NCBI GenBank assembly: GCA_965261985.1
Contig: OZ253490.1
Location: 5,378,141-5,442,140 of the forward strand
Length of the DNA stretch: 64,000 bases
Origin: Alphaproteobacteria bacterium
GTDB taxonomy: Bacteria; Pseudomonadota; Alphaproteobacteria; Bin95
Direction: 5' to 3'
A model generated the notes under the pieces. That model did not search any database. It had not been told where the DNA came from and worked only from the letters and a program-made list of their open reading frames with translations. Position 1 is the first letter of the stretch, and every line of letters starts with the position of its first letter. This document shows positions 19,237-36,051 of the stretch, one piece after another. Made by a program: the position numbers and the translations under genes.

Positions 19237-20207
19237 TTCCCTTGATCATGAAGATGCCTAACGCCCGCAAGCTGGTGAACCTTCTCGGGCAGGCGAAGCC
19301 GGGCATGGAGGTGCTCGTCCTTCACGATCCCTTCACCGCCGCCAACGCGAAGGCGCTAGCCATCGCCGTCACCGAGTCCGGTGCATCGCTGACCACCATG
19401 CAGGCGATGCCCGGAGGCTATCATGGGAGCCAACTCTCCAAGCCCGTCGCCGCCGCGATGAAGACCAGCGACCTGATCATCGCCCCGATGCGCCAGAACG
19501 TGGCGCACACTGAGGCGCGGCGGGAGGCCCAGGCGGCCGGCGCGCGGGTGATCGTGCTGCCGGAAGCGCACGAGGACGACTTCTTCCTCGCCCGCGGCTG
19601 GAACGCCGACTTCGAGGCGTTGCGCCCGAAGATCGACGCGGTGGCGAAGGCCTTCCATGAGGCCGAGACCGCCCGCGTCTGGTCGCGCCACGGCACCGAC
19701 ATCACCATGAGCATCAAGGGTCGGCGCGGCCGCTCGCTCAACGGCTTCGTCAACACCATCGACATCTCCGCCGGCTACTGCCTAGAAGCGAGCATCGCGC
19801 CGGTGGAGGGGACCGCTGGGGGCAAGATCGTCGTCAACGCCAGCATCCCCGGCATCGGTCTGATCGAGATGGCGCCCGTCGAGATCATCTACGAGAAGGG
19901 CCTTGCGGTCTCCATAACCGGCGGGCGGGAGGCAGAGACCTTCCGCAAGTTGCTGGAGAGCTTCAACGACCCGAACGTCTACAACCTCGGCGAACTGGGT
20001 GTGGGCATGAACCCGGAGTGCTGCCTCGACGGCACCATGCTCAGCGACGAAAGCGTCTGGGGCGGTATCCAGCTCGCCCTGGGCACCAGCGCGCCCGGCG
20101 GTGAGTGCCGCGCTGCGGCGCACTACGACACCGTCCTGACCGATGCGGTGCTGGAGCTGGACGGGCAGACGATCTTCGACGGCGACGAGCTCGTCCTGAA
20201 GGTCTGA
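19233..20207 (+). CDS. M29/aminopeptidase T-fold protein (NicX-like fold)
   Basis: HGTDITM, EASIAPVEGTAGG, NLGELGVGMNP, DESVWG, HYDTVL; AGGAG RBS. Confidence 0.75.
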   Translation: MIPLIMKMPNARKLVNLLGQAKPGMEVLVLHDPFTAANAKALAIAVTESGASLTTMQAMPGGYHGSQLSKPVAAAMKTSDLIIAPMRQNVAHTEARREAQAAGARVIVLPEAHEDDFFLARGWNADFEALRPKIDAVAKAFHEAETARVWSRHGTDITMSIKGRRGRSLNGFVNTIDISAGYCLEASIAPVEGTAGGKIVVNASIPGIGLIEMAPVEIIYEKGLAVSITGGREAETFRKLLESFNDPNVYNLGELGVGMNPECCLDGTMLSDESVWGGIQLALGTSAPGGECRAAAHYDTVLTDAVLELDGQTIFDGDELVLKV

Positions 20208-21185
20208 GAGCCTGACTCGAAACTCGTTCAATGCTGGCAAGACCTTGCGATCCGCCGCGTTGTGAGTCGGATATGGGCGATGTTGATCCATGCCTCGCTG
20301 GAGGCGGTGGATTTCTCCCAGTCTTTTGCCAGCCGCCGACATCGCCCGAGCCATGCAAAGGTGCGTTCGACGACCCATCGTCGGGGCAGGACTTCGAAGC
20401 CCCCCGCCTCCGCGGGGGCAGGCTCCTGGCGGTGTCGGAGCGCTTGACGATCTCGAGCGTCCACTTTCCGATCCTGTCCAGGGCGCCGCGCAGTTTCGGT
20501 CCGGCGTATCCGCCGTCGGCAAACAGGTGACGCAGCCAGGGGCATGTATGGCGTATCGCTTTCAGCACTGCCGGAGCGCCGTCGCGGTCCTGAACGTCGG
20601 CTGCGTGCACCACCAGTCCGAAGAGCATTCCGGTGGTGTCGACGACGGCGTGACGCTTGCGGCCCCCGGATCGGGTCCGGGGCAGGCTCTTGATCTTCTT
20701 TCCGGCATCGTAGCCGCTAACCCCGCCTGCCTCCGTGGTTTTCACCGTCTGGCTGTCGATGACGCCTGCGGTCGGCTGGGCCTCGCGACCCTCCCGTTCA
20801 CGCGCCTGCATGGCCAGATGGAACCGGATCGTCTGCCACAGCCTGCTGTCGCGCCACTCGTAGAAATAGCGCTGCACCGTCGAGACCGGCGGGAAGTCCT
20901 TGGGCAGCATTCGCCATTGGCATCCCGTCGAGGCCATATACAGCACCGCGTTCACAACCTCGCGCAGGTCGGTCTTGCGCGGGCGACCGATACGCTGCGG
21001 CGCCGGCATGAAGGGCTCGATCAACGCCCACTCGCGGTCGGTCAAATCGCTTGCGTAGCGCGGGCAGTCGCGCCGATACTCACGGCGGGCGGTTTCGGTC
21101 CAGGGCATTTGTGGCTCCGTTCAGCTTCGTAACCGAACAGAATCACAAACCCTTGAAACCGCTCAACTCTTTTCGGGTCAGGCTC
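20208..21185 (-). mobile_element. IS5-family element (IS1031/IS427-like), copy 1, transposase frameshifted
   Basis: IRs GAGCCTGAC...GTCAGGCTC, TNA flanks; transposase from 21108 ([26 protein letters not shown]) with two hairpin insertions. Confidence 0.92.
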
Positions 21186-21188
21186 TAA

Positions 21189-21220
21189 GGGAAATCCAGC
21201 CCAAAGTCCGACAGACTGCT
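21189..21220 (-). mobile_element. Displaced left end of the IS1182 element at 34037-35570
   Basis: CCCAAAGTCCGACAGACTGCT is identical to the IS1182 right end at 35550-35570. Confidence 0.8.
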
Positions 21221-22656
21221 AGGACACTCTGGACGTCCGCCTTGACGGCGAGATCGGGCACCCGTTGGTTCACGCCGTCCAGAAAGGCGTCGAAGCATTC
21301 GCCGGCCACCTCGAACCACTCTCCCTTGCTGGCGCTATACATGCCCACGTCGGCATACGGGATTCCTGCCTTCGCCGCGACTTCGCTCACTTGGTGCAGA
21401 ATGTCGGACCGCTGGCTCCTGGGTACCTTGTCGGCTTTGCTTATCACGAGGTAGATGCCGTCGTCCGTCCTCCCCGCACCGTCGCCCGCGCCCCGCTGGT
21501 CGACGAACCGCTTGATTTACTCGACATCTCCCGCTAGCAGCGTGCCGCGCTCGCAGTCGATCACCCACACGAGGTGGTGCGCGGCCAGGACCTCGTCTAA
21601 CGTCAGATCCACATCGCGACGCTGCACTTGGTCCGCCTCCGGGTTCGTGTAGCCAGGCGTGTCCACGAAGGCGACCCGGCTCCACACGGCCAGATCCGGC
21701 GTCGACACGACCACGCGGTCGACGATCTCCTTGAGGGCGATACCGTACATTTTCTCGAAGTCGTGCGTGATCGCGCGCCGCGTTCGCTCGTCAAGCTGCT
21801 TCTTCCCACCCGCCTTGTTGAACGACGAGATGTCCAACGGGGCGTCCGGCACGTGGTGCACGTATGTCGGGATCGAGGTCGTTGGCGTGATCCGGGTAGG
21901 CAGCAGGCTGGATTCCGCACCGATCAGCGAGTTGATGAAGCTGGACTTCCCGCTGCTGAACCCGCCCGCGACGGCGACGATGCTCTTGCCCACAAGCCGC
22001 GGTGCGTACCGCATCCGCGCCATCTTGGACTGGATGATGGTCAACTCCGCATAGGCGTCCGCCTTCGCCGGGAAGTCGTCGAGACGGGACTCTTCCCGGT
22101 ACTCGGACAGCAGCTCAGCGAATTCCTTGAACGCGCCTTCGATGTCCTCGTCGACGTGCGCCTCGGCCAACATGATCGACCCGACCAAGCGGATATCGTC
22201 GCAGTAGCGGACCGCGTGGTCCGCCAGGATGTCAACTGCCTCCTCGCCGCGCTCCACATCAGCGGCGACCTCCTCCAACCGGCGATCCGCCCCTTCGTAC
22301 ATCTGCGCTGCTTTCCCGTCCCGCGGCGCGAGCCACTCGTCCTTCATGTCAGCTCGAAGCAGCGTCTTCGCCGACGCGACCGCCGACTCCAGCCGCCGCA
22401 AGTCCCCAACGAGCGCGTCTAGGTCGTCGAAATCCGCGCGGATGCGCGAGGCAGCGCGGTCGAGTGCCGAACGGAGCGACTCGACGGGTACGGAGCCCTC
22501 CAGGCCACGCCGTCCGCGCAACAGCCACCGGAAACGGTCCGCGAGCGCCCGGATGCGCCGAAACCGCAGCGCCTGCTCCGCCAGTCGCTCGACGTCCCGT
22601 TCGGATTCGTCGAGACATGTCCGTATCGCTTCCAGACGACGCGAGCAGTCGGCGGC
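21221..22656 (-). pseudogene. Dynamin-like GTPase, truncated at both ends with an internal stop
   Basis: G1 AGGFSSGKSSFIN, G2 PTTSIPT, G3 FVDTPG, G4 ISKAD in the same frame beyond TAA at 21517-21519; coiled-coil N-part cut by IS630. Confidence 0.8.
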
Positions 22657-22658
22657 TA

Positions 22659-23877
22659 GTGTCCTGTCATACATGATATGTCGTATATTTTATGGTAGCT
22701 TTCTCGTCGTCCAACGACGGCGAGGAGGTCGGGATGAAGCGTTACGTGGTGACCTTGGAGAAGGAGGAGCGGGACGAGCTCGCGGGGGTCACGCGCAAGG
22801 GCTCGCATCAATCGCAGAAAGTGATCAACGCGCTGATCCTGCTCAACTGCGACGAGGGCGAGTTCAACGAGCACCGGGCGCGCGGGGAGGCCATTGCCGA
22901 GATCCTGCGCATCAGTGCGCGCAAGGTGGATCGGGTCAAGAAGCGTTTCGTCGAGGCGGGCATGGAGGCGGCGCTCGGCGGCCGACAAGGTCGCCGTCCC
23001 AGCTACGTGCGCAAGGCCGACGGCGAGTTCGAGGCGCGCCTGGTGGCACTGAGCTGCGCCGAGCCGCCGGAGGGCTACTCGCAGTGGTCGCTACGGTTGC
23101 TGGCGGACCGTGTCGTGGAGCTCGGCCACATCGACAGTGTGTCGCACGAGACGGTGCGCCGGGTCCTAAAAAAAACGCAATCAAGCCGTGGCGACGCGTC
23201 GGCTGGGTGATTCCCCCACAGGGCAACGCGGACTTCGCCGCGGCGATGGAGAAGGTACTCGACATCTACCGGCGTCCCTACGATGCGACCTTTCCGGTGG
23301 TGTGCATGGACGAGACGCCCCGGCAACTGGTCAGCGAGACACGCGAACCGGTTCGCGCGGCGCCGGGTCGCCCGGCGCGCGAGGACTACGAGTACCGACG
23401 CTGCGGAAGCTGCAACGTGTTCATGGCGACCGAACCCCTGGCCGGGCGGCGCATGACCAAGGTGACGGCGCGCAGAACCAAAACCGACTGGGCGCACTTC
23501 CTCAACGACATCGCCGAGCGCTACCCCGGTGCCAAGAGGATCACGCTGTTGATGGACAACCTGAACACCCACCGCCCCGGCGCCCTCTACGAGGCCTTTC
23601 CGCCGGCCGAGGCCAAGGCCCTGTGGAACCGCTTCGAGTTCGTCTATACGCCCAAGCACGGCAGTTGGCTCAACGTCGCCGAGGTCGAACTCAACGTCAT
23701 GACCCGTCAGTGCCTCAACCGCCGCATCGCCTCCCTTGAGGTCCTGCGCGACGAGGTCGCGGCTTGGCAGGCGGACCGAGACCGCATCCAGAGCAAGGTC
23801 AACTGGCAGTTCACCACCGACGACGCCCGCGTGAAGTTGAAACGTCTTTATCCGACACTTGATGAATGACAGGACAC
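22659..23877 (+). mobile_element. IS630-family element with programmed -1 frameshift
   Basis: IRs GTGTCCTGTCAT/ATGACAGGACAC flanked by TA; orfA from 22734, A8C slippery site at 23168-23176, DDE (CMDET, MDNLNTH, SWLNVAE) to 23869. Confidence 0.92.
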
Positions 23878-23879
23878 TA

Positions 23880-24880
23880 GGTTGTGCGGGGAATCCAATC
23901 ACATGTCGAAACACATCCTCCCCTGTTTCTGTCACCACCGCACGAAATCGACGGGGATTCGATTGCCACTCCCGCAGTCTTCCTTCAACTCTCAACTCTC
24001 GTGTATTCGCGTCACCCTCTATCGACAGAGCAATCAGATTGTAACTCGGCGACCAACCAAGCTCATTGTGGTCGGGATTCACCGCCCCCGCATTAAACCG
24101 GACATGAGTTGCATCTCTCTCGATTCTCTGCCTGTGTTTATGGCCAAACATCTGTATCGCGACCGATCCATTAATCGCGTCGAGCACATCGTCCTGGTCT
24201 TTAAGCCAGTCGGGTGGGTGGTGGCTAATAACAAGATACAACACATCCTCTTCCGGGTCGATCGCCGTTTGCAACGGGCTCAAATATAGTTCACCACGTA
24301 CGTCATCACCTCCGTTTAGACCGGAAAGGACCGTGGATGTTAGACCATGCAGTCGCAACCTAGCGCCCTTTCCAAGATCCAAATCCTGCACCCATTTGAG
24401 TCGATCAGGAAGATAAACCTGGCAATTGTATTTCGCCGCAAAATTATTATATTCGGAAATTGGAGCCAGCAACGCTTGCGCAGTGTCCTTGTCAAATATT
24501 TGTTCCCTGAATACTTTTCCCCGCCGCTCTTCAGGTGCATCGGCGATCGCGGCCTGGGCATTTTTTGTAGCAACGTGAGCCCTAATTGTTGCACGATTTA
24601 CGTCGTGATTACCGGGAACCAAGAATACTCGCTCTTGCGGACAACCAGCCGCAGCGCACAGTTCGCTTATCCAAGCCTTTGCTGTTTGATATTCTTCTCT
24701 AGCACCCCGAAACGCGATGTCTCCGCCGATCAATATAGCCGCTGCAGGACCAAGCGTGACGACTTGTTGTTGAATGTCACGGACCATATACGACCTTATA
24801 GGCCGATTTGGGTCACTGGCTGGATTGATACAATCCGGAGCCTTGAAATGAATATCAGAGATGTGAAGCAGCAACATCTG
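23880..24880 (-). pseudogene. Calcineurin-like metallophosphoesterase, 3'-truncated by IS630
   Basis: LHISDIH, GGDIA, VPGNHD, SHHP, FGHKH motifs; markedly lower GC than the flanks. Confidence 0.85.
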
Positions 24881-25305
24881 ATTACTTTTCCTATTTCTCT
24901 TGTCTGTCTTCTGTCCCAACCCCGGTCAATGTTCCGGAATGCAATTCCACCGGAGCTTCGTCTCCAATCGTCATATACACCCCACGGTCTTACCTTGCAT
25001 CCGAGTTTCTATCCGAGCCGGTATCCTGTTAGCTCGCAATCTCAAACGCATATCGGCTCTTCTCTGCAGTTGGTCGTAAGGCCGCCACCTCGGTCGTCGT
25101 ATAACAATCGACCGCTCCCATCTCTGCGTTCTGCATAGCATCTTCAGGCGGTCTCCACGATAACCTAGCATCCGCAACCTTGTATGGCCTCACGAACGCC
25201 TGCATCGGCGTCCATTCATCTCTGTCACATCGCCCCTCCGCTCATTGGAGCCCGCCGTCCAGCTCCTCCATCGCCAAGTCCCTGTAAGTTCTCTCGCAGA
25301 CATAC

Positions 25306-25533
25306 TCATGATGGGAATCGTCTCCAGCGCCTAGCCTTCCAGCAGGGCCATTCCAGGCTGTAATCCCGATCAGTGTCATGTACACCGAGCGCCCAACCGA
25401 TCAGCACAGCGGCGACACCCTCCATCGCGAGCAGCGCGACCCGGTTCTCCCCGGCCACCGTATCGGCGATTGCGATTTCGTCCGAATCGCGCATCTCGTC
25501 CAGGAAGGCCAGGACCAGTTCTTCTGGCGGCAT
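25306..25533 (-). CDS. Small hypothetical protein or fragment
   Basis: MPPEELVLAFLDEMRDSDEI...; plausible coding composition only. Confidence 0.3.
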   Translation of the reverse strand: MPPEELVLAFLDEMRDSDEIAIADTVAGENRVALLAMEGVAAVLIGWALGVHDTDRDYSLEWPCWKARRWRRFPS

Positions 25534-25797
25534 GGCGGGGCTTTCCCTCTCCAGACAATCGATGCCGCACGGCCGCAGCACAGTGCAGTTTCGCACGCCG
25601 GGCCGCCGGCTTGAAGGCCGTGCTCCGGTATTCGTCGCTTTGGCCGCAGCACCGCCCCCCTCGCCGCCGCTGGGGCGGGCGTCGGCAGGAGGCGGCGGGT
25701 CGCGTTTCCCGGGCGGATTTCGGAGCCGGAGAGCGGCCTCCGTACCTCCACCGGGCCGACCGTGCAGCCCCTCCCCTCTATTGAGTGCCTCGCTAGT

Positions 25798-25950
25798 TTA
25801 GCCCGTTTCCTTCAGCGACTGGATGCGCCAGACGGTCTCGTCGCCATGGCGCACCGCAGTTCGGCTCTGGTGCGTGAGGATCGCTTCGTCGAACGGCTCG
25901 AACAGCGGCAGGAAGCGGGGCACGCTGTCGGCGTCCCGACCGAGATCGGC
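25798..25950 (-). pseudogene. IS66 transposase (TnpC) fragment
   Basis: RFLPLFEPFDEAIL...VRHGDETVWRI resembles the IS66 HADET motif region. Confidence 0.6.
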
Positions 25951-26174
25951 AGCCCCTGGTCCGACATCCATGCGGAGAACCGGCACGGCCACGGGCATCC
26001 ACCTCCGCCCAGCGTAGCTCTTCTGCGCGCGCCTCAGCCGCATCGGCTCGCGAGCGCTCCCGTTACGCCCGGGCATGCGCCTGATCGTACAGGGACCGCC
26101 AGTCACGCGCCGGCGCGTGACTGGCGACCAAATCGCGTCGTTCCCCTCGGTCAACGGTCAACTCGTCAATGTTT

Positions 26175-27320
26175 CTACACTTTGCGCTCATCCTTAATGC
26201 CAAGAGGATGATCCGGAGAAATACCAAGAAGGGCTAGTGCAAGGTTGTGGGCAACCAAATCAGACCACTTCATAAATTGTTCTTCCGAGAGTGCCTGGCC
26301 GGATTTCACACCACACTGTAAATTCGCTCTCTCAACAGCATTAGTGGTCATCAAATGCTTTAGGCACGTAGCCAAAACTCCCTTCAAGCAATCTTCAACT
26401 CTCCCATCATCCACTCTTTCATTGGCGAGTATCGCGGGAACCTCGTCTTGGGTAAACTCTAATGCGACATCCAAATCAAGACTTTCGCCGGACACGGGAT
26501 CGATTGCATAGCATATGCTAAATGCGTCTCCACGATAATTGCCGGATAAACGCGCGACGATCCTTTGGTAGCCAAAAAATTCCACATAGGCTAGGATATG
26601 GCCCTGCGTTGGATCGCCATATACGCAAATGCAATGAAAACAGATCCCGACTGGTCGATTCTTGACCAAGTCAATCTCATTATAGTGACCGAAGCATGCA
26701 TCGCCGGTTCCTTTCAGGTACTTCCTTGCGTCCTCACAGTCATCTGTGGACACACCTGCCTGGTAAGCCAATCCAAGACATGATTTAATGATCGAACGCC
26801 CAACATCATCGCCGCTCAGAAAAAGTGGAAGTGATATTCGGAGAGGGAATTGTATTTGCTCTCGTATGTCAGTTGCATTCGATAGAATTTCCTCAACCTT
26901 CAGATTAAAACGCTTCCGAGCTTCTTGCTTAAGTAGTCGTTTCGCCTCTTGCATCGATTTGGCCTCTATGGCCACTTCGATCACGCCAGCGAGAGTGCGC
27001 TTAGTGCGAATAGTGTGAGGTATAGATACTGAGGCGTCGGGATTGAGGACAAATTTCTTGCCATCAGCACCTCTCACGGCCATTGGCCGATTGGTTCCTC
27101 TGGCTCTCTTGACGCCTAACATCGTGCAGAATGGCTTTAGTTGGTCGAAAAGTGCGTTATCCCAACTTCGTCCAGTTTCGCTGTTGCAACTCTCACAAAT
27201 AAAAGTCCTCGCCGTCTTACGTCCACCTATGGAATTTGGAATAATATGCTCATTGCTGCTGTTCTCTGTCGTAAGCGGAGTTTGACAAAGAGCACAGAAA
27301 CTGGTCATCTGATGATACAC
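26175..27320 (-). CDS. HNH endonuclease (N-terminal Zn-bound HNH) with an unknown C-terminal domain
   Basis: CALC...NEHIIPNSIGG...ICESCNSETG; low GC. Confidence 0.82.
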   Translation of the reverse strand: MYHQMTSFCALCQTPLTTENSSNEHIIPNSIGGRKTARTFICESCNSETGRSWDNALFDQLKPFCTMLGVKRARGTNRPMAVRGADGKKFVLNPDASVSIPHTIRTKRTLAGVIEVAIEAKSMQEAKRLLKQEARKRFNLKVEEILSNATDIREQIQFPLRISLPLFLSGDDVGRSIIKSCLGLAYQAGVSTDDCEDARKYLKGTGDACFGHYNEIDLVKNRPVGICFHCICVYGDPTQGHILAYVEFFGYQRIVARLSGNYRGDAFSICYAIDPVSGESLDLDVALEFTQDEVPAILANERVDDGRVEDCLKGVLATCLKHLMTTNAVERANLQCGVKSGQALSEEQFMKWSDLVAHNLALALLGISPDHPLGIKDERKV

Positions 27321-27339
27321 CTTTGATGTGGCGACGTCC

Positions 27340-27575
27340 TGGCGCGGACGGAAGGCGCCGAGTCATGGTTGTCCAGTCGGGCGAGTATGAACGCCTTAAG
27401 AGGCGGGATCGTCAAGCGCTTGCGGTGGAAGAGCTTTCCGCTAGCGAGATCGAAGCGATCAGCCGCGCCGAGCCGCCGGCCGAAGCTGCACGGTACGATC
27501 ATGAGGTGACGGTCGGGCAGGGCGGTTCAGACTTCTCGGACACGGGCATCGACGTGATCGATCCTTGGGAGAGCG
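27340..27575 (+). pseudogene. Fused remnants of a Phd/YefM antitoxin and a PIN (VapC) toxin
   Basis: EYERLKRRDRQALAVEELS...EPPAEAARYDHE (Phd-type C-part) then SDFSDTGIDVIDPWE (VapC C-terminus). Confidence 0.55.
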
Positions 27576-27652
27576 CAAGAGCACCTCGCCCGAATGCGTG
27601 GCCGTCCCAAGATCATCCGTATGCGGGCACCCTACGATGGGCACGAGCTGCC

Positions 27653-27730
27653 ATGACGCCAGGCTCGTTCATTGCCAAATGGCGGGCAACGGAATTTAAG
27701 GGGCGTTCGGCGACGCAATCACATTTCAAC
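27653..27730 (+). pseudogene. N-terminal stub of a type IIG/IIL (MmeI/YeeA-like) restriction-modification enzyme
   Basis: MTPGSFIAKWRATEFKGRSATQSHFN matches the recalled start MTPxxFIAKW...ERSAxQxHF. Confidence 0.55.
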
Positions 27731-27836
27731 CGGTATTCCCCATATGGAACCCTCCCAGCCCGTCAAGTGTGACTCGAAACCGCTCGACGTGCGATTCGTC
27801 TTCGAATGACGGCCATTTTCGCGCCGATCCGGATGA

Positions 27837-28859
27837 TTGAGGACCAATTGGCGGCGTTGGTGGCGCGGAATGGCATTCTTGCCGGCGATCCGGGCGCTCC
27901 GATCCTGTCGGCGGCGACGCGAAGGAACGGGGGTGTCGCTCATGCTCAACTGGCAGGGACTGCGCGCGTATCTCGACAATCCCGTGTTTCTGTCATCGCT
28001 GCCAGGAAAAAGTGCGGTCGAGCAAGTCATGGGCGCAGTCGTCGATGGCGGCTTCGAAAGCGTACTCGACGAGCATTTCTGGCTTCGCGCCCAAAATCTC
28101 CAAGAGGGCGCCGCCGGTCTCGCCAAGGATCTGCAATCGTCGCTCGGGCTACGTGCAGGCAGCTTTAGCTTTCATGGCATTGGTGGACGGCCGGACAAAA
28201 TACCGGTGCGTTGCCATGTCGCCGTGCCCTTCGGCGACGCCGAGATCCAGCCCGTCACCAAGGTAGCGGGCGGCGAGGCGCAAGCCACCCCAGTCCGCCC
28301 CAATGAAGTCCGCAGGAGTTTCAATACGCCATTCTGGCCACATGTCTTGGCAACAACGTCCGTTGGGCAGGAGGGTCTCGATTTTCACTCATGGTGCTCG
28401 AATGTGGTTCATTGGGATCTCTCGTCCAATCCACTCGACCTCGAACAACGAGAGGGTCGTGTCCAGCGCTATGCGGGCCTGGCCGTCAGGCGCCGGCTTT
28501 CGGAGGTGCTGCGTGACGAGGTGTTGAGCGATCCTGTTATGGCCGAAGGTTCCCCTTGGCGATGCGTTGAGAGGCACGCGGAGCGCTCCGTGGATGCGAG
28601 CGGCCTTCGTCCTTGGTGGGTGCTCGATGGTGCCGAAATCAGCCGTCATGTATTTGAGCGCCCTTTTGGGACGGACGTTGCGCGTTTCGTCCAACTTCGA
28701 GAGCAGCGCATGATCTATCGACTGGCTCTTGGACAGCCCAACCAAGAGGACCTCATCGACGTGTTGTCGCGGGGTACCGAAGCAACCCGCTCGATACTGC
28801 AATCGTTGGTTCTTGATCTCTCTGCCATGGGACCGAATCAGGCACCGAAGGAGAACTAA
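27837..28859 (+). pseudogene. C-terminal half of a superfamily 2 helicase (defence-associated type)
   Basis: FNTPFWPHVLATTSVGQEGLDFH...HWDLSSNPLDLEQREGRVQRY (motifs V/VI), YRLALGQPNQED; no Walker A/B half. Confidence 0.78.
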
Positions 28860-29014
28860 ACCGGTGCGGCTAACGGGCATGGAAGCCAGAGATATATTAG
28901 CGATGGGTGTCGTTAAGGGCCGGGTCCTGACTCCTCACGATCCAACGCGATCCATCACTTATGATGCCAATCGGCGTCCAAGCGGCGCGCTGAGCAACAT
29001 ATAGGAACGATATT

Positions 29015-29560
29015 TTGGAATTTGTTCTTTGTCATTTGGACGCAATTTACAAGATTGGGTTAATCGTTGGCGGTGTTATTGGCATTGGCCTTGGTGTGTG
29101 GAGATGCAGAACTGCTGACAAAAATTTGTTGCAGGAACGATTCAGAATTGAGGCCGAACTCATGGATATGGACAAACATCACTATTCAGTCCGGGTCTCT
29201 GGAGCCGTCACCCTTGTGGAACTGGCAAAGAACTATCCGGCAATCTACGAGATGTCTGTGATGACCACATTCGAGGCATTCCTGGAATACCCTCCATGCT
29301 TTAGTGAACAGATAGCGCAAAAGATGCATGGCTACGGTACGACAGATAGATTGGTCGATTATGGCAGTAGAGACACTATATCTATCATCAACGCAATACA
29401 TAACAGAACAAGAAAGCAAAAGGCCATATACAAGAACTTTCATCTGTCTCCGTTGTCTCCGTTCTATGTGGACCACAAAGGCCGCATATATGCGAGTGAG
29501 TACGATTCGTCATACCAATCCTGGGTCAACGAAAGAGGGATGCCGCCCACTTTTACCTGA
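29015..29560 (+). CDS. Hypothetical single-TM protein
   Basis: N-terminal TM, then ERF...SVRVSGAVTLVELA (resembles the domain found before pentapeptide repeats); low GC. Confidence 0.55.
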   Translation: MEFVLCHLDAIYKIGLIVGGVIGIGLGVWRCRTADKNLLQERFRIEAELMDMDKHHYSVRVSGAVTLVELAKNYPAIYEMSVMTTFEAFLEYPPCFSEQIAQKMHGYGTTDRLVDYGSRDTISIINAIHNRTRKQKAIYKNFHLSPLSPFYVDHKGRIYASEYDSSYQSWVNERGMPPTFT

Positions 29561-29618
29561 TCGTTGACAACCACGATATTGGAAACTATCTTTCTTCGTG
29601 CAAGCATGGAGAAAGACG

Positions 29619-30040
29619 ATGGAAGCGTACGATGTGGTCGGCTGGGCCACTTTGCTGATCGCCGGTGCGGCCCTAGGAGTGACGATTGCCATACTTCATT
29701 ACCAGAAAAGATTGTCTAGGACCAATCTCCACATAGAATTAATCGAGCAAAGGTACGGATTTCAAACGGTGATAGCCGGGAACAAGAGCACTGAACCTGA
29801 GAGATATGAGAAGCGAACAGCAGTATCAATCTACTTCAGGATATCAAACCGATCTCACAGTAGACCAAATAGGCTAGTCGAACTGCACATCAAGGCACCA
29901 CGCGATACAGAGGACGTGTCCAATTTCCGATTTAGAAATTTTGGCAAGCATATGACTTGGGACGCAACCAGAAGAATTCTGCACGGAGCAATGGACACTG
30001 GACACATCCAAGGACTGTTGGTTGGTGAACCATGGCTTGA
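29619..30040 (+). pseudogene. Hypothetical membrane-anchored protein truncated by a transposase fragment
   Basis: TM VVGWATLLIAGAALGVTIAILH; GC jumps at about 30040. Confidence 0.45.
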
Positions 30041-30391
30041 AGCGTCTCGTACCTCGTCATCCAGAGCGATATGGCCATGCCGTTCCATGGACTCCACCAG
30101 CATCGGAAGCAATGGCTTCAGGCGCTTGCCGCAGATGCGGTCCGAGGCCTCCCACAACACCACCAGGGCCTCCCGCACCGTATCGTCATAAAGGCGCCGG
30201 GAGGGGCGTGCCGCCCCCGCCGGCCGCGCCGGCGAGCCGCGCTGCAACAGCCGCATGGCATGCTTCCGATGATAACCCGTGATCGCCACGAACTCGTCGA
30301 GAATACGTGTCTTCTCCGCACGGTCGCCCTCGACATACCGACGGCGAGCCGCCGCCAAAAGTTCATCGCGTGTCGCCATGCTCACCCTCAT
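30040..30391 (-). pseudogene. N-terminal fragment of an integrase-core (ISNCY-type) transposase
   Basis: SMATRDELL...ILDEFVAITGYHRKHAMRLL...LWEASDRICGKRLKP; repeated GAGGCAA units upstream (30444-30476). Confidence 0.75.
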
Positions 30392-30758
30392 TTCGATAGC
30401 CCCCGAGACATTCCTCTCGGGAGCATTCCAAGTGAGGCAACGGCCCAGTCAAAAGGAACAATTCAGGCGAGGCAATGCGCTCAGGTTCCTGTATGTCGAG
30501 ACGCTGGGATGCCCCGAGCGCGTGGCCCTGGCGCTCCATGATGGCGTAGCTCTCCTGTCAATTGTCGAAACAATTCGATTGCCAGGACAATCGGTTTGGC
30601 ATAGGTTCCGCGTCCTTGAGAACACGGTCAGCCGATGACGGCCCGGGGGGCGCGAGTGCCCGGGAGGCCGTCCGCCCTTCGATGTTGTAGAACGGCTCCG
30701 GACGAGGTGTGACGGACCCCGACGGAGCGGAGCCCGGCTCTACAGCCGGGACCCCCTT

Positions 30759-31908
30759 GTGCAAGCCCGCTACGATCCCGAAGGCGCTCTTCAGCGCCCG
30801 GCCGGAGGGAGTCCGGCCCCGACGCATACCGTCCGGCTGATCGACCTCCCGCAATACGACACCGCCCGCGCCCCGATCGAAAAGCGCCTGAAGGCGTTCC
30901 TGACGGGGCTGCGCAAACGGCGCCTGCTGCTGGCGTATTTCCGCGATCTGCGGGAACGGGAGCGAAGGTCCGCTCCTGCGTCGGCGCCGCCTTACGACTG
31001 GGCGGACTTTCGGGAATTGCGTCATGAGGCCGGGCTGTCGCGTTTCCGGCTTCCTTCGAACACCCTGATCCGCCTCGGGTGCCGGGTGGACGCCGTGGTC
31101 GCGCGCCGGCACAAGGCAAGCGGTCTGGGGCATCTGAAGGACAAGGGGGAGAAGGAGCGCCTGCGCCCTCTCCTGGGCGATGTGCCGGCAGTGACGGTCC
31201 CCTCGGAGCACCGGGCCGACGAGATCGCGGCGTCATTGCACGAGGAGATGCCCTGGATGGCGCCGGCGACGGAGGCGGCCTGGCACGCCCTCCGGCGCAG
31301 CGCGCGCGAGGGAGGGCCGGTCCGGATCGGGCCGCTCCTCCTGGTCGGGCCTCCGGGCGTCGGCAAGACGGCCTGGGCCAACCGGCTCGCCGGGCGTCTG
31401 GGGACGGCCTCTTCCGTCATCGACGCCTCCCGGGGCCTGTCCTCGTTTTCGCTGGCCGGCACCGAGCGCGGCTGGGGCTCGGCGCAGCCCGGCCGGCCGC
31501 TCGCGGCCATGCTCGATGCGCGTCTCGCCAATCCCGTCATCGTGGTCGACGAAGTGTGCAAGGCGGGCAGCATCCGGTCCGCGGGCGGCGTCTCGGTGGG
31601 CTTCCTGCCGGCTTTGCTGGGCCTTCTGGAGCCGGAGAGCGCGCGGGCCTGGGACTGTCCGTATTTTCGTGTCCGGATCGATATGAGCCATCTGAGCTGG
31701 GTGATGACGGCGAACACGCTCGAGACCCTGCCGGAGCCGGTTCTGAGCTGCTGCCAGGTGCTGCGCATCCCCGATGTGACGCCGGCGCAGCTTCAGGGCT
31801 TCGCGCGCCGCCAGGGAGCGGCGCTGGGGCTCCCGGATACGGCGATCGAGGCCGTGGCCGAGGTCATCGACCGGGCGCCGGAGGTCCTGCGCCTCCGGCT
31901 CAGTCTCA
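30759..31908 (+). pseudogene. Lon-like AAA+ ATPase (no protease domain), C-terminus cut by IS5
   Basis: GPPGVGKT, NPVIVVDEVCKA, LLGLLEP, SWVMTAN; runs into the IS at 31909. Confidence 0.78.
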
Positions 31909-32886
31909 GAGCCTGACCCGAAAAGAGTTGAGCGGTTTCAAGGGATTGTGATTCAGTCCGGTTACGAAGCTGAACGGAGCCACGAATGCCCTGGACCGAA
32001 ACCGCCCGCCGTGAGTATCGGCGCGACTGCCCGCGCTACGCAAGCGATTTGACCGACCGCGAGTGGGCGTTGATCGAGCCCTTCATGCCGGCGCCGCAGC
32101 GTATCGGTCGCCCGCGCAAGACCGACCTGCGCGAGGTTGTGAACGCGGTGCTGTATATGGCCTCGACGGGATGCCAATGGCGAATGCTGCCCAAGGACTT
32201 CCCGCCGGTCTCGACGGTGCAGCGCTATTTCTACCAGTGGCGCGACAGCAGGCTGTGGCAGACGATCCGGTTCCATCTGGCCATGCAGGCGCGTGAACGG
32301 GAGGGTCGCGAGGCCCAGCCGACCGCAGGCGTCATCGACAGCCAGACGGTGAAAACCACGGAGGCAGGCGGGGTTAGCGGCTACGATGCCGGAAAGAAGA
32401 TCAAGAGCCTGCCCCGGACCCGATCCGGGGGCCGCAAGCGCCACGCCGTCGTCGACACCACCGGGATGCTCTTCGGACTGGTGGTGCATGCAGCCGACGT
32501 TCAGGACCGCGATGGCGCGCCGGCAGTGCTGAAATCGATACGCCATGCATGCCCCTGGCTGCGTCACCTGTTTGCCGACGGCGGATACGCCGGACCGAAA
32601 CTGCGCGGCGCCCTGGACAGAATCGGAAAGTGGACGCTCGAGATCGTCAAGCGCTCCGACACCGCCAAGAGCCTGCCCCCGCGGAGGCGGGGGGCTTCGA
32701 AGTCCTCCCCCGACGATGGGTCGTCGAACGCACCTTTGCATGGCTCGGGCGCTGCCGACGGCTGGCAAAAGACTGGGAAAAATCCGTCGCCTCCAGCGAG
32801 GCGTGGATCAACATCGCCCATATCCGACTCACAACCCGGCGGCTCGCAAGGTCTTGGCAGACTTGAAGGAGTTTCGAGTCAGGCTC
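31909..32886 (+). mobile_element. IS5-family element, copy 2 (near-identical to copy 1, opposite orientation)
   Basis: Same 978 bp length, same IRs, same two hairpin insertions; transposase from 31986. Confidence 0.92.
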
Positions 32887-32889
32887 TAA

Positions 32890-33820
32890 GAGTCTGGCCC
32901 AAAAAGAATGTTTGTTTTTCAGTATCTTACGATTCTTCTGGTGAGGAGTTGAACGGAGGCGATGAAGAGCCAGGCTTGCGCTGTAGCGATCATTGCCTCG
33001 AAGTCTTTCGCCAGTCGCCGGTTTCGGTTTAGCCACGCCAGCGTGCGTTCGACGACCCATCGGCGGGGGAGGACTTCGAAGCCTTGGGCGCCGTTCGGGC
33101 GTTTGACGATCTCGAGGGTCCATCGCCCGACCCGCTTCAGGGCGGCTTCGAGTTTGGGGCCGGCATAAGCGCCGTCGGCGAAGACATGGCGCAGCCACGG
33201 GAAGCTGTACCGGATGGAGGCGAGCAGGGCGGGCGCGCCGTCGCGATCCTGGATGTTGGCGGCGTGGACCCGGGCGGCTACCAGCAGGCCGCCGGTGTCG
33301 GTGAGGATATGACGCTTGCGACCCTTGACCTTCTTGCCTGCATCGAAGCCCCGTGGGCCGCCGCTTTCGGTGGTTTTCACGCTCTGGCTGTCGATGACGC
33401 CGGCCGAAGGGCTGGCTTCGCGCCCCGCCGCCTCGCGGACCGCCATCAGGAGATGGCGATTGATCCGCATCCACAGACCGCCGTCCCGCCACGCGGCGAA
33501 ATAGCGCTGTATCGTCGAACGGGGCGGAAACTCCTTCGGCAACATCCGCCAGGGGCAGCCCGAACGCAAAACATACAGGATGGCGTTCACCACCTCCCGC
33601 AAATCCGTCGTCCGCGGCCGGCCCAAAGCCTTCTCCGGCGGCATATGAGGGGCGATCACCCGCCACTCCGCATCGCTCAGATCGCTTGCGTAACGAAGGC
33701 CCGTGCGGGCATATTTCGGGCGAGTGATTTCAGTCCACATCTTGTGCCTCGCTGATTGCTTCAACACATCCAGTGAATCACAACACGCTGAAATCACTCA
33801 ATTCATTTCGGGCCGGACAC
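32890..33820 (-). mobile_element. Related IS5-family element with an intact transposase (33740-32919)
   Basis: IRs GAGTCTGGCCC/GGGCCGGACAC, TAA on both sides; GKKVKGRKRH and [13 protein letters not shown] uninterrupted. Confidence 0.9.
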
Positions 33821-33823
33821 TAA

Positions 33824-34033
33824 GAGCCTGACTCATAAAGAAAGGTTGTCTTTCAATATCTTGCGAGCCGTCGCGTGACGAGTTGAACGGGACCGACGCG
33901 GTGCCGAGCGTGGGCGGAGGGGATTGCCACCATCGAAGTCTTTCGCCAGTCATCGCATACACCTTGCCAGTAGCCTGGACAAATCAAGGAGCATAATCCG
34001 TTGAAATTACGTGATTCATTTTGGGTCAGGCTC
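33824..34033 (-). mobile_element. 210-bp internally deleted IS5 derivative (MITE-like)
   Basis: GAGCCTGACTC...GGGTCAGGCTC ends; interior retains a degenerate LAKDF...RRLARY transposase tail. Confidence 0.75.
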
Positions 34034-34046
34034 TTAGAATCTCAGG

Positions 34047-35399
34047 ATGAGCAACTTCGTGGACTGTGATCGGGACCAAGCGTTTCTGCTTCCTCCCGAT
34101 CTGCGGGACTGGATCCCGGCGGATGATTTGGCGCACTTCGTGATCGAGGCGGTCGAACGCGTCGATCTGGGCGCCTTCAAGGTGAACCATCGTGGCACGG
34201 GCTCGGCGCAGTATCACCCCCGGATGATGCTGGCGCTGCTGATCTACTGCTACGCCAACGGGATCTTTTCCAGCCGTCGTATCGAGCGGGCGACGCACCG
34301 CGATATCGGTGTTCGCTTCGTTGCGGCGAACCGGCACCCCGACCACGATACGATCGCGCGCTTCCGGCGGGAGAACTTCGACGCGGTGTCGGAGAGCTTC
34401 TTGCAGGTTCTGCTTCTGGCCAAGGAGTTGAAGCTGTTGCGCGTGGGCTTGGTGAGCGTCGACGGCTCCAAGTTCAAGGCCAACGCCAGCAAGCATCGTT
34501 CGGTGACGTATGAGCGCGCGGGCGGGTTGATCGCCCAACTGGAAGGCGAGATCGCGGCGTTGCTGAGCCGGGCGGAGGCGGCGGACGTGGCTGGCGAGGA
34601 GGATCCCCAGGCCTTGCCGAAGGAGATTGCCCGCCGCGCGGCCTTGCGCGACAAGCTCGATGCGGCCCGTCGCCATCTGGAGGCGCAGGCTGAGGCGCGG
34701 GCGGCAGCGGAGCGCGCGGCCTGGGAGGCCAAGGTGGCGGCGCGGGAGAAGCGCCGGGGTCGTGCCAAGGGCAAGCATCCGAAGCCGCCGGCCGAGACCC
34801 CGGCTGCGGACGCGCAAAGCAATCTGAGCGACCCGGACAGTCGGCTGATGCGCAAGAGCAAGCAGCATGAGTATCGCCAGGCCTACAACGCGCAGGCGGC
34901 GGTGGATGCCGGCGGCAGTCAGTTGATCGTGAGCGCGCGGATCGGCCAATGCGCCAGCGACCGCAACGACCTGGTGGCGGACATCGCGGCGATCCCGGCG
35001 GTGCTGGGCCGGCCGGAGACGGTGCTCGCGGACAACGGCTATGCCAACGGAGCGGAGGTGGCGGCGCTGGAGACGAGCGGCATCGAGGTCCTGGTGTCGA
35101 CCGCGGCGGAAGGCCGCCGCCGAACCCACGACTTCCGCCCGGTGAAGGCTCTGCCAGCGGTAAAGGAGCCCAAGGCCGACTGGTTGAAGGCGATGGCCGA
35201 GAAGCTCGCGAGCGAAGAGGGCCGTGCCCTCTACAAGCTGCGCCGGCAGACCGTCGAGCCGGTCTTCGGCGTCATCAAGGCGGTGCTCGGCTTCGCCGGG
35301 TTCTCGCTGCGCGGCCTCGACAAGGTCGAGGGCGAGTGGACCCTGGTGGCTCTCGCTTACAACTGCAAGCGCTTGCACAAGCTGAGCCTGGCGACATGA
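34047..35399 (+). CDS. IS1182-family transposase
   Basis: DQAFLLPPDLRDW, YHPRMMLALL, SVDGSK, QAYNAQ, LADNGY, RRQTVEPVFG; right end at about 35570. Confidence 0.92.
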   Translation: MSNFVDCDRDQAFLLPPDLRDWIPADDLAHFVIEAVERVDLGAFKVNHRGTGSAQYHPRMMLALLIYCYANGIFSSRRIERATHRDIGVRFVAANRHPDHDTIARFRRENFDAVSESFLQVLLLAKELKLLRVGLVSVDGSKFKANASKHRSVTYERAGGLIAQLEGEIAALLSRAEAADVAGEEDPQALPKEIARRAALRDKLDAARRHLEAQAEARAAAERAAWEAKVAAREKRRGRAKGKHPKPPAETPAADAQSNLSDPDSRLMRKSKQHEYRQAYNAQAAVDAGGSQLIVSARIGQCASDRNDLVADIAAIPAVLGRPETVLADNGYANGAEVAALETSGIEVLVSTAAEGRRRTHDFRPVKALPAVKEPKADWLKAMAEKLASEEGRALYKLRRQTVEPVFGVIKAVLGFAGFSLRGLDKVEGEWTLVALAYNCKRLHKLSLAT

Positions 35400-35578
35400 G
35401 GCGCCGCGGCGGAGCAGGTCGTGACAGAGCTAGCCCGCCCACGCCGCGATCCGCCGCAGAACCGGCAAACCGCCTCTATCGGGAAGAAACCAGCCCCACC
35501 TCAGCCCGACGCCAAAACCACCGGCCACAAAGCCATACTCAATCGATGACCCAAAGTCCGACAGACTGCTAACCGGCA

Positions 35579-35956
35579 ACGAGGATATTGCTGGACACCC
35601 ACGCCTTTCTTTGGTGGTTGACGGACGATTCCCGCTTGTCGCGCCCCGCTCGCCGCATGATCGGAGACAATGCGAATGACGTCGTGGTGAGCGCCGCTTC
35701 CGTCTGGGAAATCGCGACCAAGGCCCGGCTCGGCAGGCTGCCGGACATCGGCGCCGACATCGCCGGTTCCATCGCCAGAGAAGGCTTCGAGCAAATCGCG
35801 ATCTCGGTCGCCGATGCCGAGCGCGCCGGACGGCTGCCGGGGCCCCATCGAGACCCGTTCGACCGGATGCTCATCGCCCAGGCCATAGGACACGGCATGC
35901 CGATTGTGTCCATCGACGCAGCGTTCGACCGCTACGACATCCGCCGCCTCTGGTAG
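35579..35956 (+). CDS. vapC: PIN-domain VapC toxin, orphan, with non-ATG start
   Basis: (T)RILLDTHAFLWW, SAASVWEIA, HRDPFDRMLIAQA; ACG stands where the ATG is expected. Confidence 0.8.
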   Translation, partial: TRILLDTHAFLWWLTDDSRLSRPARRMIGDNANDVVVSAASVWEIATKARLGRLPDIGADIAGSIAREGFEQIAISVADAERAGRLPGPHRDPFDRMLIAQAIGHGMPIVSIDAAFDRYDIRRLW

Positions 35957-36051
35957 CCGGTCCAGCCTGCCGGACGCAGCATTGGCAAAGGACGCGCTGC
36001 CGGACTAGGATTCCCGTAGCGACGAAGAGCCGGAATGCGGGGATACGGGCG

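Follow-up and report, generated by a model that had tools for sequence, protein, structure and literature searches.

The described systems closest to the hairpins reported here are the repetitive extragenic palindromes (REPs) and the insertion sequences (ISs) of the IS200/IS605 type. REPs have been proposed to be non-autonomous elements that are moved in trans as single-stranded DNA (PMC8266576, PMC3116915). In IS200/IS605 elements and in REPs served by REP-associated tyrosine transposases (RAYTs), a tetranucleotide 5′ of the hairpin selects the cleavage sites (PMC8266576). For the CGTC-tagged REPs, no enzyme is known according to the available part of PMC3733652, which also reports intragenic, codogenic copies; the converse relation, insertion of an IS into a REP, is known as well (PMC3733652, PMC3116915). 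How REP-like hairpins spread is still unsettled in the excerpts of the three papers on which these statements, and those below, are based (PMC3733652, PMC8266576, PMC3116915). Here, we describe a set of hairpin micro-elements, of which two interrupt the transposase gene of an IS5-family element in a 64,000-nt stretch of an alphaproteobacterial chromosome (contig OZ253490.1, positions 5,378,141 to 5,442,140; called the window below). The micro-elements very probably constitute a site-specific mobile family.

Two hairpin inserts in an IS5-family transposase

The window carries two copies, ISa and ISb, of the same IS5-family element and one more distant relative (Table 1). Alignment of ISa and ISb with the relative gave exactly two gaps in the latter, of 24 and 23 nt. 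The 24-nt insert (AGCCTGCCCCGGACCCGATCCGGG, type A) is situated between AAG and GGC and adds the residues SLPRTRSG between K and G of the ISb transposase. The 23-nt insert (AGCCTGCCCCCGCGGAGGCGGGG, type B) is situated between AAG/AGG and GGC and places the catalytic C-terminal part of the same protein in the −1 frame. Both inserts fold as 7-bp hairpins, whereby the last G is supplied by the first base of the flank. An earlier note on this DNA, made from the letters alone, had located the two inserts in both IS5 copies and their absence in the relative, and its coordinates proved exact by alignment; one shared head, one target context and the lack of a target duplication, which it had also claimed, all hold.

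The z-scores of the hairpin folds are only about −1. Folding energy is no evidence for the inserts, because GC-rich shuffles of such length fold well too. Four copies of the decamer AGCCTGCCCC are present in the window, on the forward strand at 32406 and 32670 and on the reverse strand at 20415–20424 and 20679–20688; the shuffled window contains it 0.35 times on average, and four occurrences were reached in 0 of 100 shuffles. Furthermore, assembled contigs, all of DNA type, from four public runs, belonging to four studies, cover the inserts, and none of these contigs skips either one. Insert 1 (type A) is bridged by X1 record 4 and X5 record 28, insert 2 (type B) by X1 record 7, and the IS is contained in its entire length, without a gap, in a 3.5-kb contig (X13 record 9). 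Chance and the assembly artefact that the earlier note had named as a danger were ruled out by the shuffles, by reversed controls and by the public contigs that bridge the inserts.

A genome-wide hairpin family with a fixed target site

The source genome, G000, is one contig of 5,605,802 bp with 66.5% G+C, in which the head is present 101 times. A survey of perfect hairpins (stem of at least 7 bp, loop of 3–9 nt) yielded 5,347 hairpins, and AGCCTG was the top hexamer 5′ of GC-rich stems, with 70 occurrences compared to 38 for the next. The two stem types are found in 255 hairpins, of which 99 carry a head ending in CCTG: 73 of type A (CCCCGG...CCGGGG) and 26 of type B (CCCC[CT]GC-N4-GC[GA]GGGG). 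These 99 copies fall into 36 flank contexts, 23 with the exact AGCCTG; CGCCTG, TGCCTG and AACCTG occur as head variants. In the element, the 6-nt head AGCCTG is left unpaired and precedes a GC stem of 7 bp with a loop of 4–7 nt, so that 23–26 nt are inserted in total. The remaining hairpins are mostly (128) GTCG/GTCA-headed and YCCA-tailed, often in tail-to-tail pairs ~65 nt apart, an anatomy that corresponds to the CGTC-tagged REPs described in PMC3733652. Because the stems (GGA/TCC, GGC/GCC, CGC/GCG; CGC-GAAG-GCG module) and the loop orientation of the micro-elements match those of the ~128 CGTC/TGTC-tagged REPs of the genome, the micro-elements are a relative of these REPs with another tag.

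More than a dozen pairs of occupied and empty alleles demonstrated exact insertion at NAG^G(G/T)C (^ marks the insertion point) without target duplication. In every clean pair, the insert starts with the A of the AGCCTG head and stops at the penultimate G of the 3′ stem, and the stem is completed by the target G. Within the genome, such pairs come from an IS4-like element (24 nt at CGCAAG^GGCGAG; 4 copies occupied, 1 empty), a repeated upstream region (26 nt at GGGAG^GGCCGG; 4 copies occupied, about 7 empty), an IS256 element (23 nt at GCCAG^GTGTCG), a recent duplication (23 nt at ACCAG^GGCC; empty copy 93–98% identical) and a further 24-nt case at 797268. In IS66, one member shows about 27 occupied and 2 empty copies for a 24-nt antisense insert with less clean junctions, and a second member has 1 occupied and 8 empty copies (TGCAG^GTGGAC, 23 nt). 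Four TnpB paralogues carry different insertions at different sites, e.g., GCAG^GTCTGG with 23 nt. The flank logo of the 23 exact-head contexts in G000 reads C at −4 (15/23), any base, A at −2 (15/23) and G at −1 (18/23); the full hairpin is followed by G (target +2) in 13 and then by C in 11 of these contexts.

Among the copies of the IS5 host in G000, all six that cover site 2 carry insert 2, and six of the seven that cover site 1 carry insert 1. The remaining copy, at 4457939–4458892, is empty at site 1, where it reads ATCAAAGGCCGC, and is only three substitutions apart from the occupied copy at 3857890–3858868; the presence of insert 1 varies between near-identical IS5 copies. The junction base of the empty copy is A (AAA GGC), the same as in the outgroup, and this copy could be an unoccupied ancestral allele or the result of re-conversion or loss. 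The sister genomes G001, G005, G011, G016 and G021 belong to the same genus. The inserts are absent from 84–85% identical IS copies in G005 (11 copies of 931–932 nt) and G011 and from 75–78% identical copies in G001 and G021, while a 25-nt version is present at IS5 site 1 in G016.

Sites occupied in the relatives were also compared with G000. Among 29 type A elements from 28 loci tested, 13 have no counterpart in G000; the other 16 correspond to 2 occupied, 6 cleanly empty (e.g., CGG^GTC and GAG^GGC) and 8 ragged sites. Of the 13 type B loci in the relatives, 5 map to two sites occupied in G000, 5 are ragged, 2 are without a counterpart, and the last one represents a clean new site in the IS5 of G005 (AGG^GGC).

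Distribution in the genus, other phyla and viruses

Type A with the exact head was found in 14 of the 16 other genomes of the genus, with 1–17 copies each, and 54 copies were counted in G000. In two sister genera, it was present in 1 of 10 and 0 of 10 genomes, respectively. A control pattern of type A written backwards returned 0 matches in all 37 genomes. Type B was present in 5 of the 16 other genus genomes and in 25 copies in G000. The earlier note had suggested a family of ultra-small, non-autonomous, target-specific hairpins that should recur in the genome and its relatives and align with empty alleles at a common target; the copies counted here, the empty alleles and the target motif bear this out.

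A cross-phylum scan with AGCCTGCCCCGGA-N5-TCCGGGG, using one genome per species, gave at least 122 loci, whose titles include Alpha-, Beta-, Gamma- and Deltaproteobacteria, Chloroflexota, Fibrobacter, Acidobacteria, Actinomycetes, Bacteroidetes, Planctomycetes and others. Among the 122 matches listed, to which all cross-phylum counts in this work refer, the loop is CTTGA in 62, CTCGA in 17 and CCCGA in 13, with C1, G4 and A5 of the loop conserved from phylum to phylum. The 91 unique contexts among them contain A at −2 in 62 and G at −1 in 53 cases. Flanks able to pair over at least 6 bp around the element were observed in 18 of the 91 contexts compared with 3.2 expected, so the element is frequently located within another hairpin repeat's loop. 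In viral contigs, 48 loci were found versus 0 for the reversed control. A sample of 131 viral-contig hairpins with the same stem showed the heads AGCCTG, CCGTCA and TCGTCA seven times each.

Invaded genes, reading frames and selection

The G000 chromosome is unusually rich in ISs, with about 30 IS66, 11 IS256 and at least 16 IS5-family copies. Most micro-elements of this genome ride on them: 28 in IS66, 9–10 in IS256, 6 + 6 in IS5 and 4 in the IS4-like element. The invaded transposase-type genes comprise three IS5 lineages or sites, two IS66 members (a third in G008), IS256, the IS4-like element and TnpB. Other invaded genes encode a prophage prohead protease, a serine invertase and large surface-type proteins, and intergenic sites are occupied as well. 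A feature of the IS5 lineage only was ruled out by the copies in other IS families, TnpB, prophage and intergenic DNA. Of the genome, 12.2% consists of repeats (≥400 bp, ≥85% identity), within which 13 of the 23 exact AGCCTG contexts are situated. The idea of IS parasites put forward earlier is partly supported by this share, which could be explained as well by insertion tolerance in dispensable genes. Moreover, the elements are not specific to ISs, as the prophage, surface-protein, invertase and intergenic sites show.

The 24-nt form adds a peptide to several proteins, as the earlier note had anticipated. The IS66 transposase (501–505 aa, Pfam DDE_Tnp_IS66) reads through it; many copies are 99.8–100% identical, and the insert is also present in copies only 80–89% identical to one another. 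The open reading frame (ORF) of the IS4-like element (412 aa; Pfam DDE_Tnp_1 + DUF772) stays open with a 24-nt element. Two of the four TnpB paralogues, ~1.35-kb units bounded by 33–35-nt terminal inverted repeats (CTTACACAGAAAGGTTGACGG...), are intact: one ORF of 430 aa carries a 24-nt in-frame insert, and one of 421 aa carries a different, degenerate in-frame insert. The two broken TnpB ORFs are not named by Pfam and were recognised by a PF01385 genome search and tblastn. No TnpA was found in the genome alongside its four TnpB units.

The 23-nt form splits the genes that it enters. In the IS256 subfamily, 10 of 10 copies are split at Pfam profile position 134–136, exactly at the 23-nt element; the C-terminal part has, as read from the sequence, no start codon of its own, and the sole empty copy of this element is itself broken. 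Seven copies are at least 99.8% identical, and the IS256 relatives in G005 (20 copies), G013, G008 and G012 are without the element. Between element-bearing IS256 lineages 10–13% apart, the ratio of non-synonymous to synonymous substitution rates (dN/dS) amounts to 0.14–0.28 downstream of the element, read in the −1 frame; for the upstream part it is 0.36, in a stretch that includes some non-coding DNA. For the downstream part of IS5, the one informative comparison counted, in the −1 frame, 7 changes as synonymous and 6 as non-synonymous, versus 1.5 and 11.5 in the continuing frame.

Since the 24-nt form lies in frame in intact genes and the transposases split by the 23-nt form seem to be under purifying selection in the downstream −1 frame and recently copied in near-identical form, the micro-elements do not look like inactivators, the role that the earlier note had assigned to them. 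In coding DNA, only tolerated insertions would survive, the 24-nt form adding 8 residues. For the 23-nt form, a −1 slip on the G run (CGG GGG G/T) at the 3′ end of the element would yield ...SLPPRRRG and then return to the original sequence. On the simplest reading, full-length transposase is still made from the split genes.

Features in and around the host elements

The coordinates of the host elements, the inserts and related features are collected in Table 1. A comparison of the IS5 host with plasmids gave 445 matching records, the best of which are annotated 'IS5 family / ISRm4-3 transposase'; its best plasmid relatives show 69–75% identity over 100% of the query and have a length of about 932–936 bp. 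In window positions 20000–34200, no Rfam family was found at E up to 1, and one chance snoRNA-like match lies elsewhere. Between window positions 31900 and 34040, three IS5-family units lie end to end (31910–32888, about 32890–33820 and a fragment from 33823) and abut at TAA/TTA/TCA junctions, which suggests repeated insertion beside or into one another.

Table 1. Positions of host elements, micro-elements and related features (plain ranges refer to the window; G000 and L ranges to the source genome and its extracted loci)
Feature	Position	Strand	Remarks
IS5-family (ISRm4-like) insertion sequence, copy ISb, 979 bp	31910..32888	+	terminal inverted repeats begin GAGCCTGACCC
ISa, second copy of the same IS	20207..21184	-	97% identical to ISb
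Type A micro-element in ISb, 24 nt	32406..32429	+	AGCCTG + CCCCGGA-cccga-TCCGGG; in frame
Type B micro-element in ISb, 23 nt	32670..32692	+	AGCCTG + CCCCCGC-ggag-GCGGGG; frame-shifting
Transposase frame 5′ of the 23-nt element	31986..32669	+	228 codons, including the in-frame 24-nt element
C-terminal part of the transposase	32693..32866	+	57 codons plus stop, −1 frame relative to the upstream part
Type A micro-element in ISa	20665..20688	-	site and sequence as in ISb
Type B micro-element in ISa	20402..20424	-	site as in ISb; 5′ flank AGG, not AAG
Related IS5-family element	32890..33820 (about)	-	66% identical, 8 genome copies, both sites empty
TnpB (OrfB_IS605) paralogues	L059:6214-7476 (G000 2628213-2629475); G000 2405317-2406606; L059:2641-3811; L116:1056-1804
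IS4-family insertions into hairpins	L063:1464-2801 (G000 4899963-4901300); G000 3617850-3619188; G000 599825-603081; L062:1532-3054

Several hairpins outside the ISs have particular surroundings. A 'full palindrome' copy, GAGAGCCTGCCCCGGA-ctgcga-TCCGGGGGGGCAGGCTCTC, with the head mirrored on the 3′ side, is located at L057:2231–2270 (G000 3043731–3043770) in the 5′ part of the prophage prohead-protease gene; two more copies are near the 3′ end of this gene, and the region is duplicated at about 811 kb. In the serine invertase/resolvase gene at L115:910–1716, a CGCCTG-headed hairpin lies in frame before the C-terminal helix-turn-helix (GSPGSSSGAG), and a second, inverted CGCCTG copy is found ~680 nt away, upstream of the gene. 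The REPtron-like appearance of this inverted pair was taken as coincidence. Large paralogous ORFs of 862–1414 aa, with a G+C content at third codon positions of 0.85–0.91, occupy G000 61986–69998 and 34007–36595; they contain one or two CACCTG/CGCCTG-headed hairpins in frame, encoding Gly/Ser-rich stretches (DPGSGSGAGG), and the number varies by paralogue.

Hairpins also serve as targets themselves. An IS4-family element (370-aa DDE_Tnp_1; terminal repeats begin ATAAGCGCTAACTTGTTTA) has inserted four times in a hairpin loop or stem, namely in two CGTC-type REPs and in two micro-elements that sit in an IS256 and an IS5 relative. Each insertion is accompanied by a duplication of about 9–11 bp of the hairpin, and two of the four show an inverted loop on one side. 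All that is left of this element in L062 is a ~49-nt remnant, which is invaded by the IS4-like element, resulting in a four-level nest. Finally, a 95-aa Y1_Tnp frame with an IS200-type HUH motif region is located at L001:1387–1674 (G000 about 3940965–3941252), in lower-GC DNA between transporter-like and oxidoreductase-like ORFs.

Proposed mechanism and rival explanations

As a whole, the observations are best explained by a REP-like non-autonomous hairpin that is moved in trans as single-stranded DNA, and we consider this reading probable, with moderate confidence. An enzyme would recognise the folded hairpin and move the single strand in trans, with the head as guide. The fixed boundaries, the short 5′ target, the lack of duplication, the motif at the foot of the hairpin and the conserved loop argue for an enzyme acting on a folded single strand, and its mode of action would be that of IS200/IS605 TnpA and the RAYTs. 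Read as its reverse complement, CAGGCT, the head is similar to the target CAG^G(G)C, and in the predicted fold of IS5 site 2, the head AGCC pairs with GGCT of the flank. A mover of the HUH type in particular is possible, although we are inclined to doubt it: the HUH/RAYT-like enzyme suggested in the earlier note has no candidate among the 16 other genus genomes, in which no RAYT/Y1 gene was found, and G000 has only the 95-aa fragment.

A number of observations weigh against the single-strand transfer reading. A search for PF01797 (Y1), whose first-look filter very divergent genes may escape, had no match in any of the 16 other genomes of the genus or of 22 genomes of the family. No hairpins lie within about 1.5 kb of the sole Y1_Tnp match of G000, the 95-aa fragment, and a single Y2 (IS91-type) match is only partial. 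Insertion into the lagging-strand template would be expected to leave a replication-strand bias, but the 12 versus 18 low-copy contexts show no clear one (a small sample, with genome rearrangements uncontrolled). The simple RAYT guide rule for CCTG predicts a cut after CA, while the observed cut is after AG. Some junctions are one base off the empty allele (IS5 site 1 reads AAA GGC when empty and AAG...GGC when occupied), the junction of the first IS66 member also differs from its empty allele, and no de novo insertion event was observed. The copy number per genome is low (1–17 in relatives), and the copies are mostly singletons, unlike REPINs. As for the split transposases, the −1 slip is inferred only; independent entry of the element into diverged IS copies, or gene conversion, could also have occurred, which would weaken the dN/dS argument, and the intact distant IS256 member at 250055–251158 could act in trans.

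Several candidates for the source or mover were tried and rejected. A RAYT adjoining the repeats was discarded, as the sole PF01797 match is a fragment without nearby hairpins. A MITE (a miniature transposable element with inverted repeats) of IS5 was suggested by the match of the head to the IS end GAGCCTGACCC in 10 of 11 positions, but a second end, a TNA target and a duplication are all missing. The TnpB element was dismissed as the hairpin source because its 33–35-nt inverted-repeat ends are unrelated to the hairpin.

Two rival explanations we regard as improbable. In copy-choice replication, which needs no dedicated enzyme, polymerases would stall at the hairpin, and a nascent strand ending in AG would switch to an AG-preceded element, copy the hairpin and return on the G run, so that the AG and G of the 'target' are junction microhomologies. 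Nearly all copies are indeed flanked by AG and G, no transposase was found in the genus, and the junction changes at IS5 site 1 and in the first IS66 member fit the copying of 1–2 donor flank bases. Switching on 1–2 nt should, however, give ragged ends and variable lengths, whereas the same boundaries recur in more than a dozen independent events, and copy-choice gives no account of the conservation of the 6-nt head and of loop positions C1, G4 and A5 across phyla. Alternatively, the hairpins may be old immobile fossils, spread by transposition of their host ISs, duplication, gene conversion and horizontal transfer of ISs and phages. Most G000 copies ride on ISs, the IS66 insert is shared by copies that are 80–89% identical to each other, the sites L045, L086 and L087 are common to other species, and viral contigs carry the element. 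Fossils are nevertheless hard to reconcile with 23–36 distinct contexts in one genome, with the recurrence of one target motif at unrelated sites and with the relatives, most of whose sites are empty in G000. Empty alleles in near-identical DNA (the IS5 copy at 4457939 with 3 substitutions; the duplicated region with 93–98% identity) and the different insertions at different sites in four TnpB paralogues likewise argue for mobility.

No dedicated transposase would be needed for the cross-phylum spread if the mover were a near-universal host enzyme with activity on single-stranded or hairpin DNA, such as a type IA topoisomerase or a Xer/integron-type tyrosine recombinase. Very distant phyla share the same 25-nt sequence, and a dedicated enzyme was not found. 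The crossover lies inside the stem and the target completes the hairpin, as is the case for integron cassettes. Bacterial topoisomerase I prefers C at −4, which is enriched in G000 (15/23 contexts) but not across phyla (22/91 contexts), and the topoisomerase-type signal was therefore set aside. We know of no such hairpin-moving activity for topoisomerase IA or Xer/integron recombinases, and the patchy occurrence within one family (14/16, 1/10 and 0/10 genomes) is not predicted by a universal enzyme, which makes this the least credible explanation, one to which we give very little weight. A bolder version of the transfer model, in which a cosmopolitan, transposase-less 23–26-nt hairpin would use head–target base pairing and a new enzyme class, and its 23-nt form would install a programmed −1 frameshift, appears unlikely to us, though less so than replicative copying or fossils.

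Significance and comparison with known systems

Many exact occupied/empty pairs, a clear target, fixed boundaries and a simple anatomy are rare for such elements, and a copy-rich complete genome would allow direct testing of mobility. The 25-nt sequence common to distant phyla and viral contigs calls for an explanation, be it a conserved mover or very efficient hitch-hiking. The split yet functional-looking IS256 and IS5 transposases point to recoding or trans-complementation which, if true, would each be a novel means by which a small repeat changes transposase expression. There is also an effect on annotation, as invaded transposase and TnpB genes are labelled pseudogenes or two ORFs.

The small dispersed repeats of cyanobacteria, which Elhai and co-workers reportedly described in 2008, are said to be ~21–27 nt long and mobile, to lie inside conserved sequence and nested in other repeats, and to have no known mechanism. 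They may represent a phenomenon similar to the micro-elements, which differ from them in sequence and phylum. Among ISs and their derivatives, the ends and miniature derivatives of IS200/IS605 share insertion 3′ of a short sequence, the lack of duplication and a 5′-guided hairpin (PMC8266576), and insertion after a fixed short sequence, NAG, without duplication was found in all clean pairs here. In contrast to IS200/IS605, the micro-element is one hairpin of 23–26 nt rather than two ends, with no TnpA. The TnpB units of the genome have ends unrelated to the hairpin and are themselves invaded by micro-elements. MITEs are characterised by IS-matching terminal inverted repeats and a target-site duplication, neither of which the micro-elements possess.

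The GTAG REPs and REPINs with their RAYTs are alike in that a conserved motif directly adjoins the hairpin on its 5′ side (PMC8266576, PMC3116915). The micro-elements differ in having another, longer head and a cut at AG^ that is off the CCTG guide rule, and their genus yielded no RAYT. The gene arrangement of REP/RAYT systems, a Y1 HUH gene (PF01797) flanked by repeats, is missing in the genome, and the inserted units are single 23–26-nt hairpins instead of the two inverted REPs of a REPIN. The in-frame tolerance of palindromic repeats in protein genes is shared with the Rickettsia palindromic elements and other codogenic palindromes (PMC3733652); RPE-1 is much longer, and frameshifts or a preference for transposase genes are not reported for these palindromes in the available part of that paper.

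A close resemblance exists to the CGTC-tagged REPs of Di Nocera et al. (2013), which are likewise small GC hairpins with an unpaired 5′ tag, mostly from Alphaproteobacteria (PMC3733652). The micro-elements agree with REPs in being GC-rich stem-loops within 20–40 nt; their tag is AGCCTG rather than GTAG or CGTC, and instead of a high-copy extragenic distribution they show 23 exact-head contexts, many of them intragenic. Compared with the CGTC REPs, they lack the CCA tail and are mostly singletons, not dimers. They also have exact empty sites at the target NAG^GKC, while the accessible sections of PMC3733652 define no target. In a literature search, the AGCCTG motif (AGCCTGCCCC) was not found in a bacterial-repeat context among the 15 of 75 matches listed, all of which are unrelated judging by title and abstract, with the supplementary tables of PMC3733652 outside the search; the hairpin strings were not found either, and a keyword search gave only known REP and MITE papers. 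Intragenic REPs and transposase-less CGTC REPs are already in print, as the consulted excerpt of PMC3733652 attests. New in the present family are the third tag, a defined target with many empty sites and the identity across phyla, together with the repeated invasion of transposase and TnpB genes and frameshifted transposases that apparently still work.

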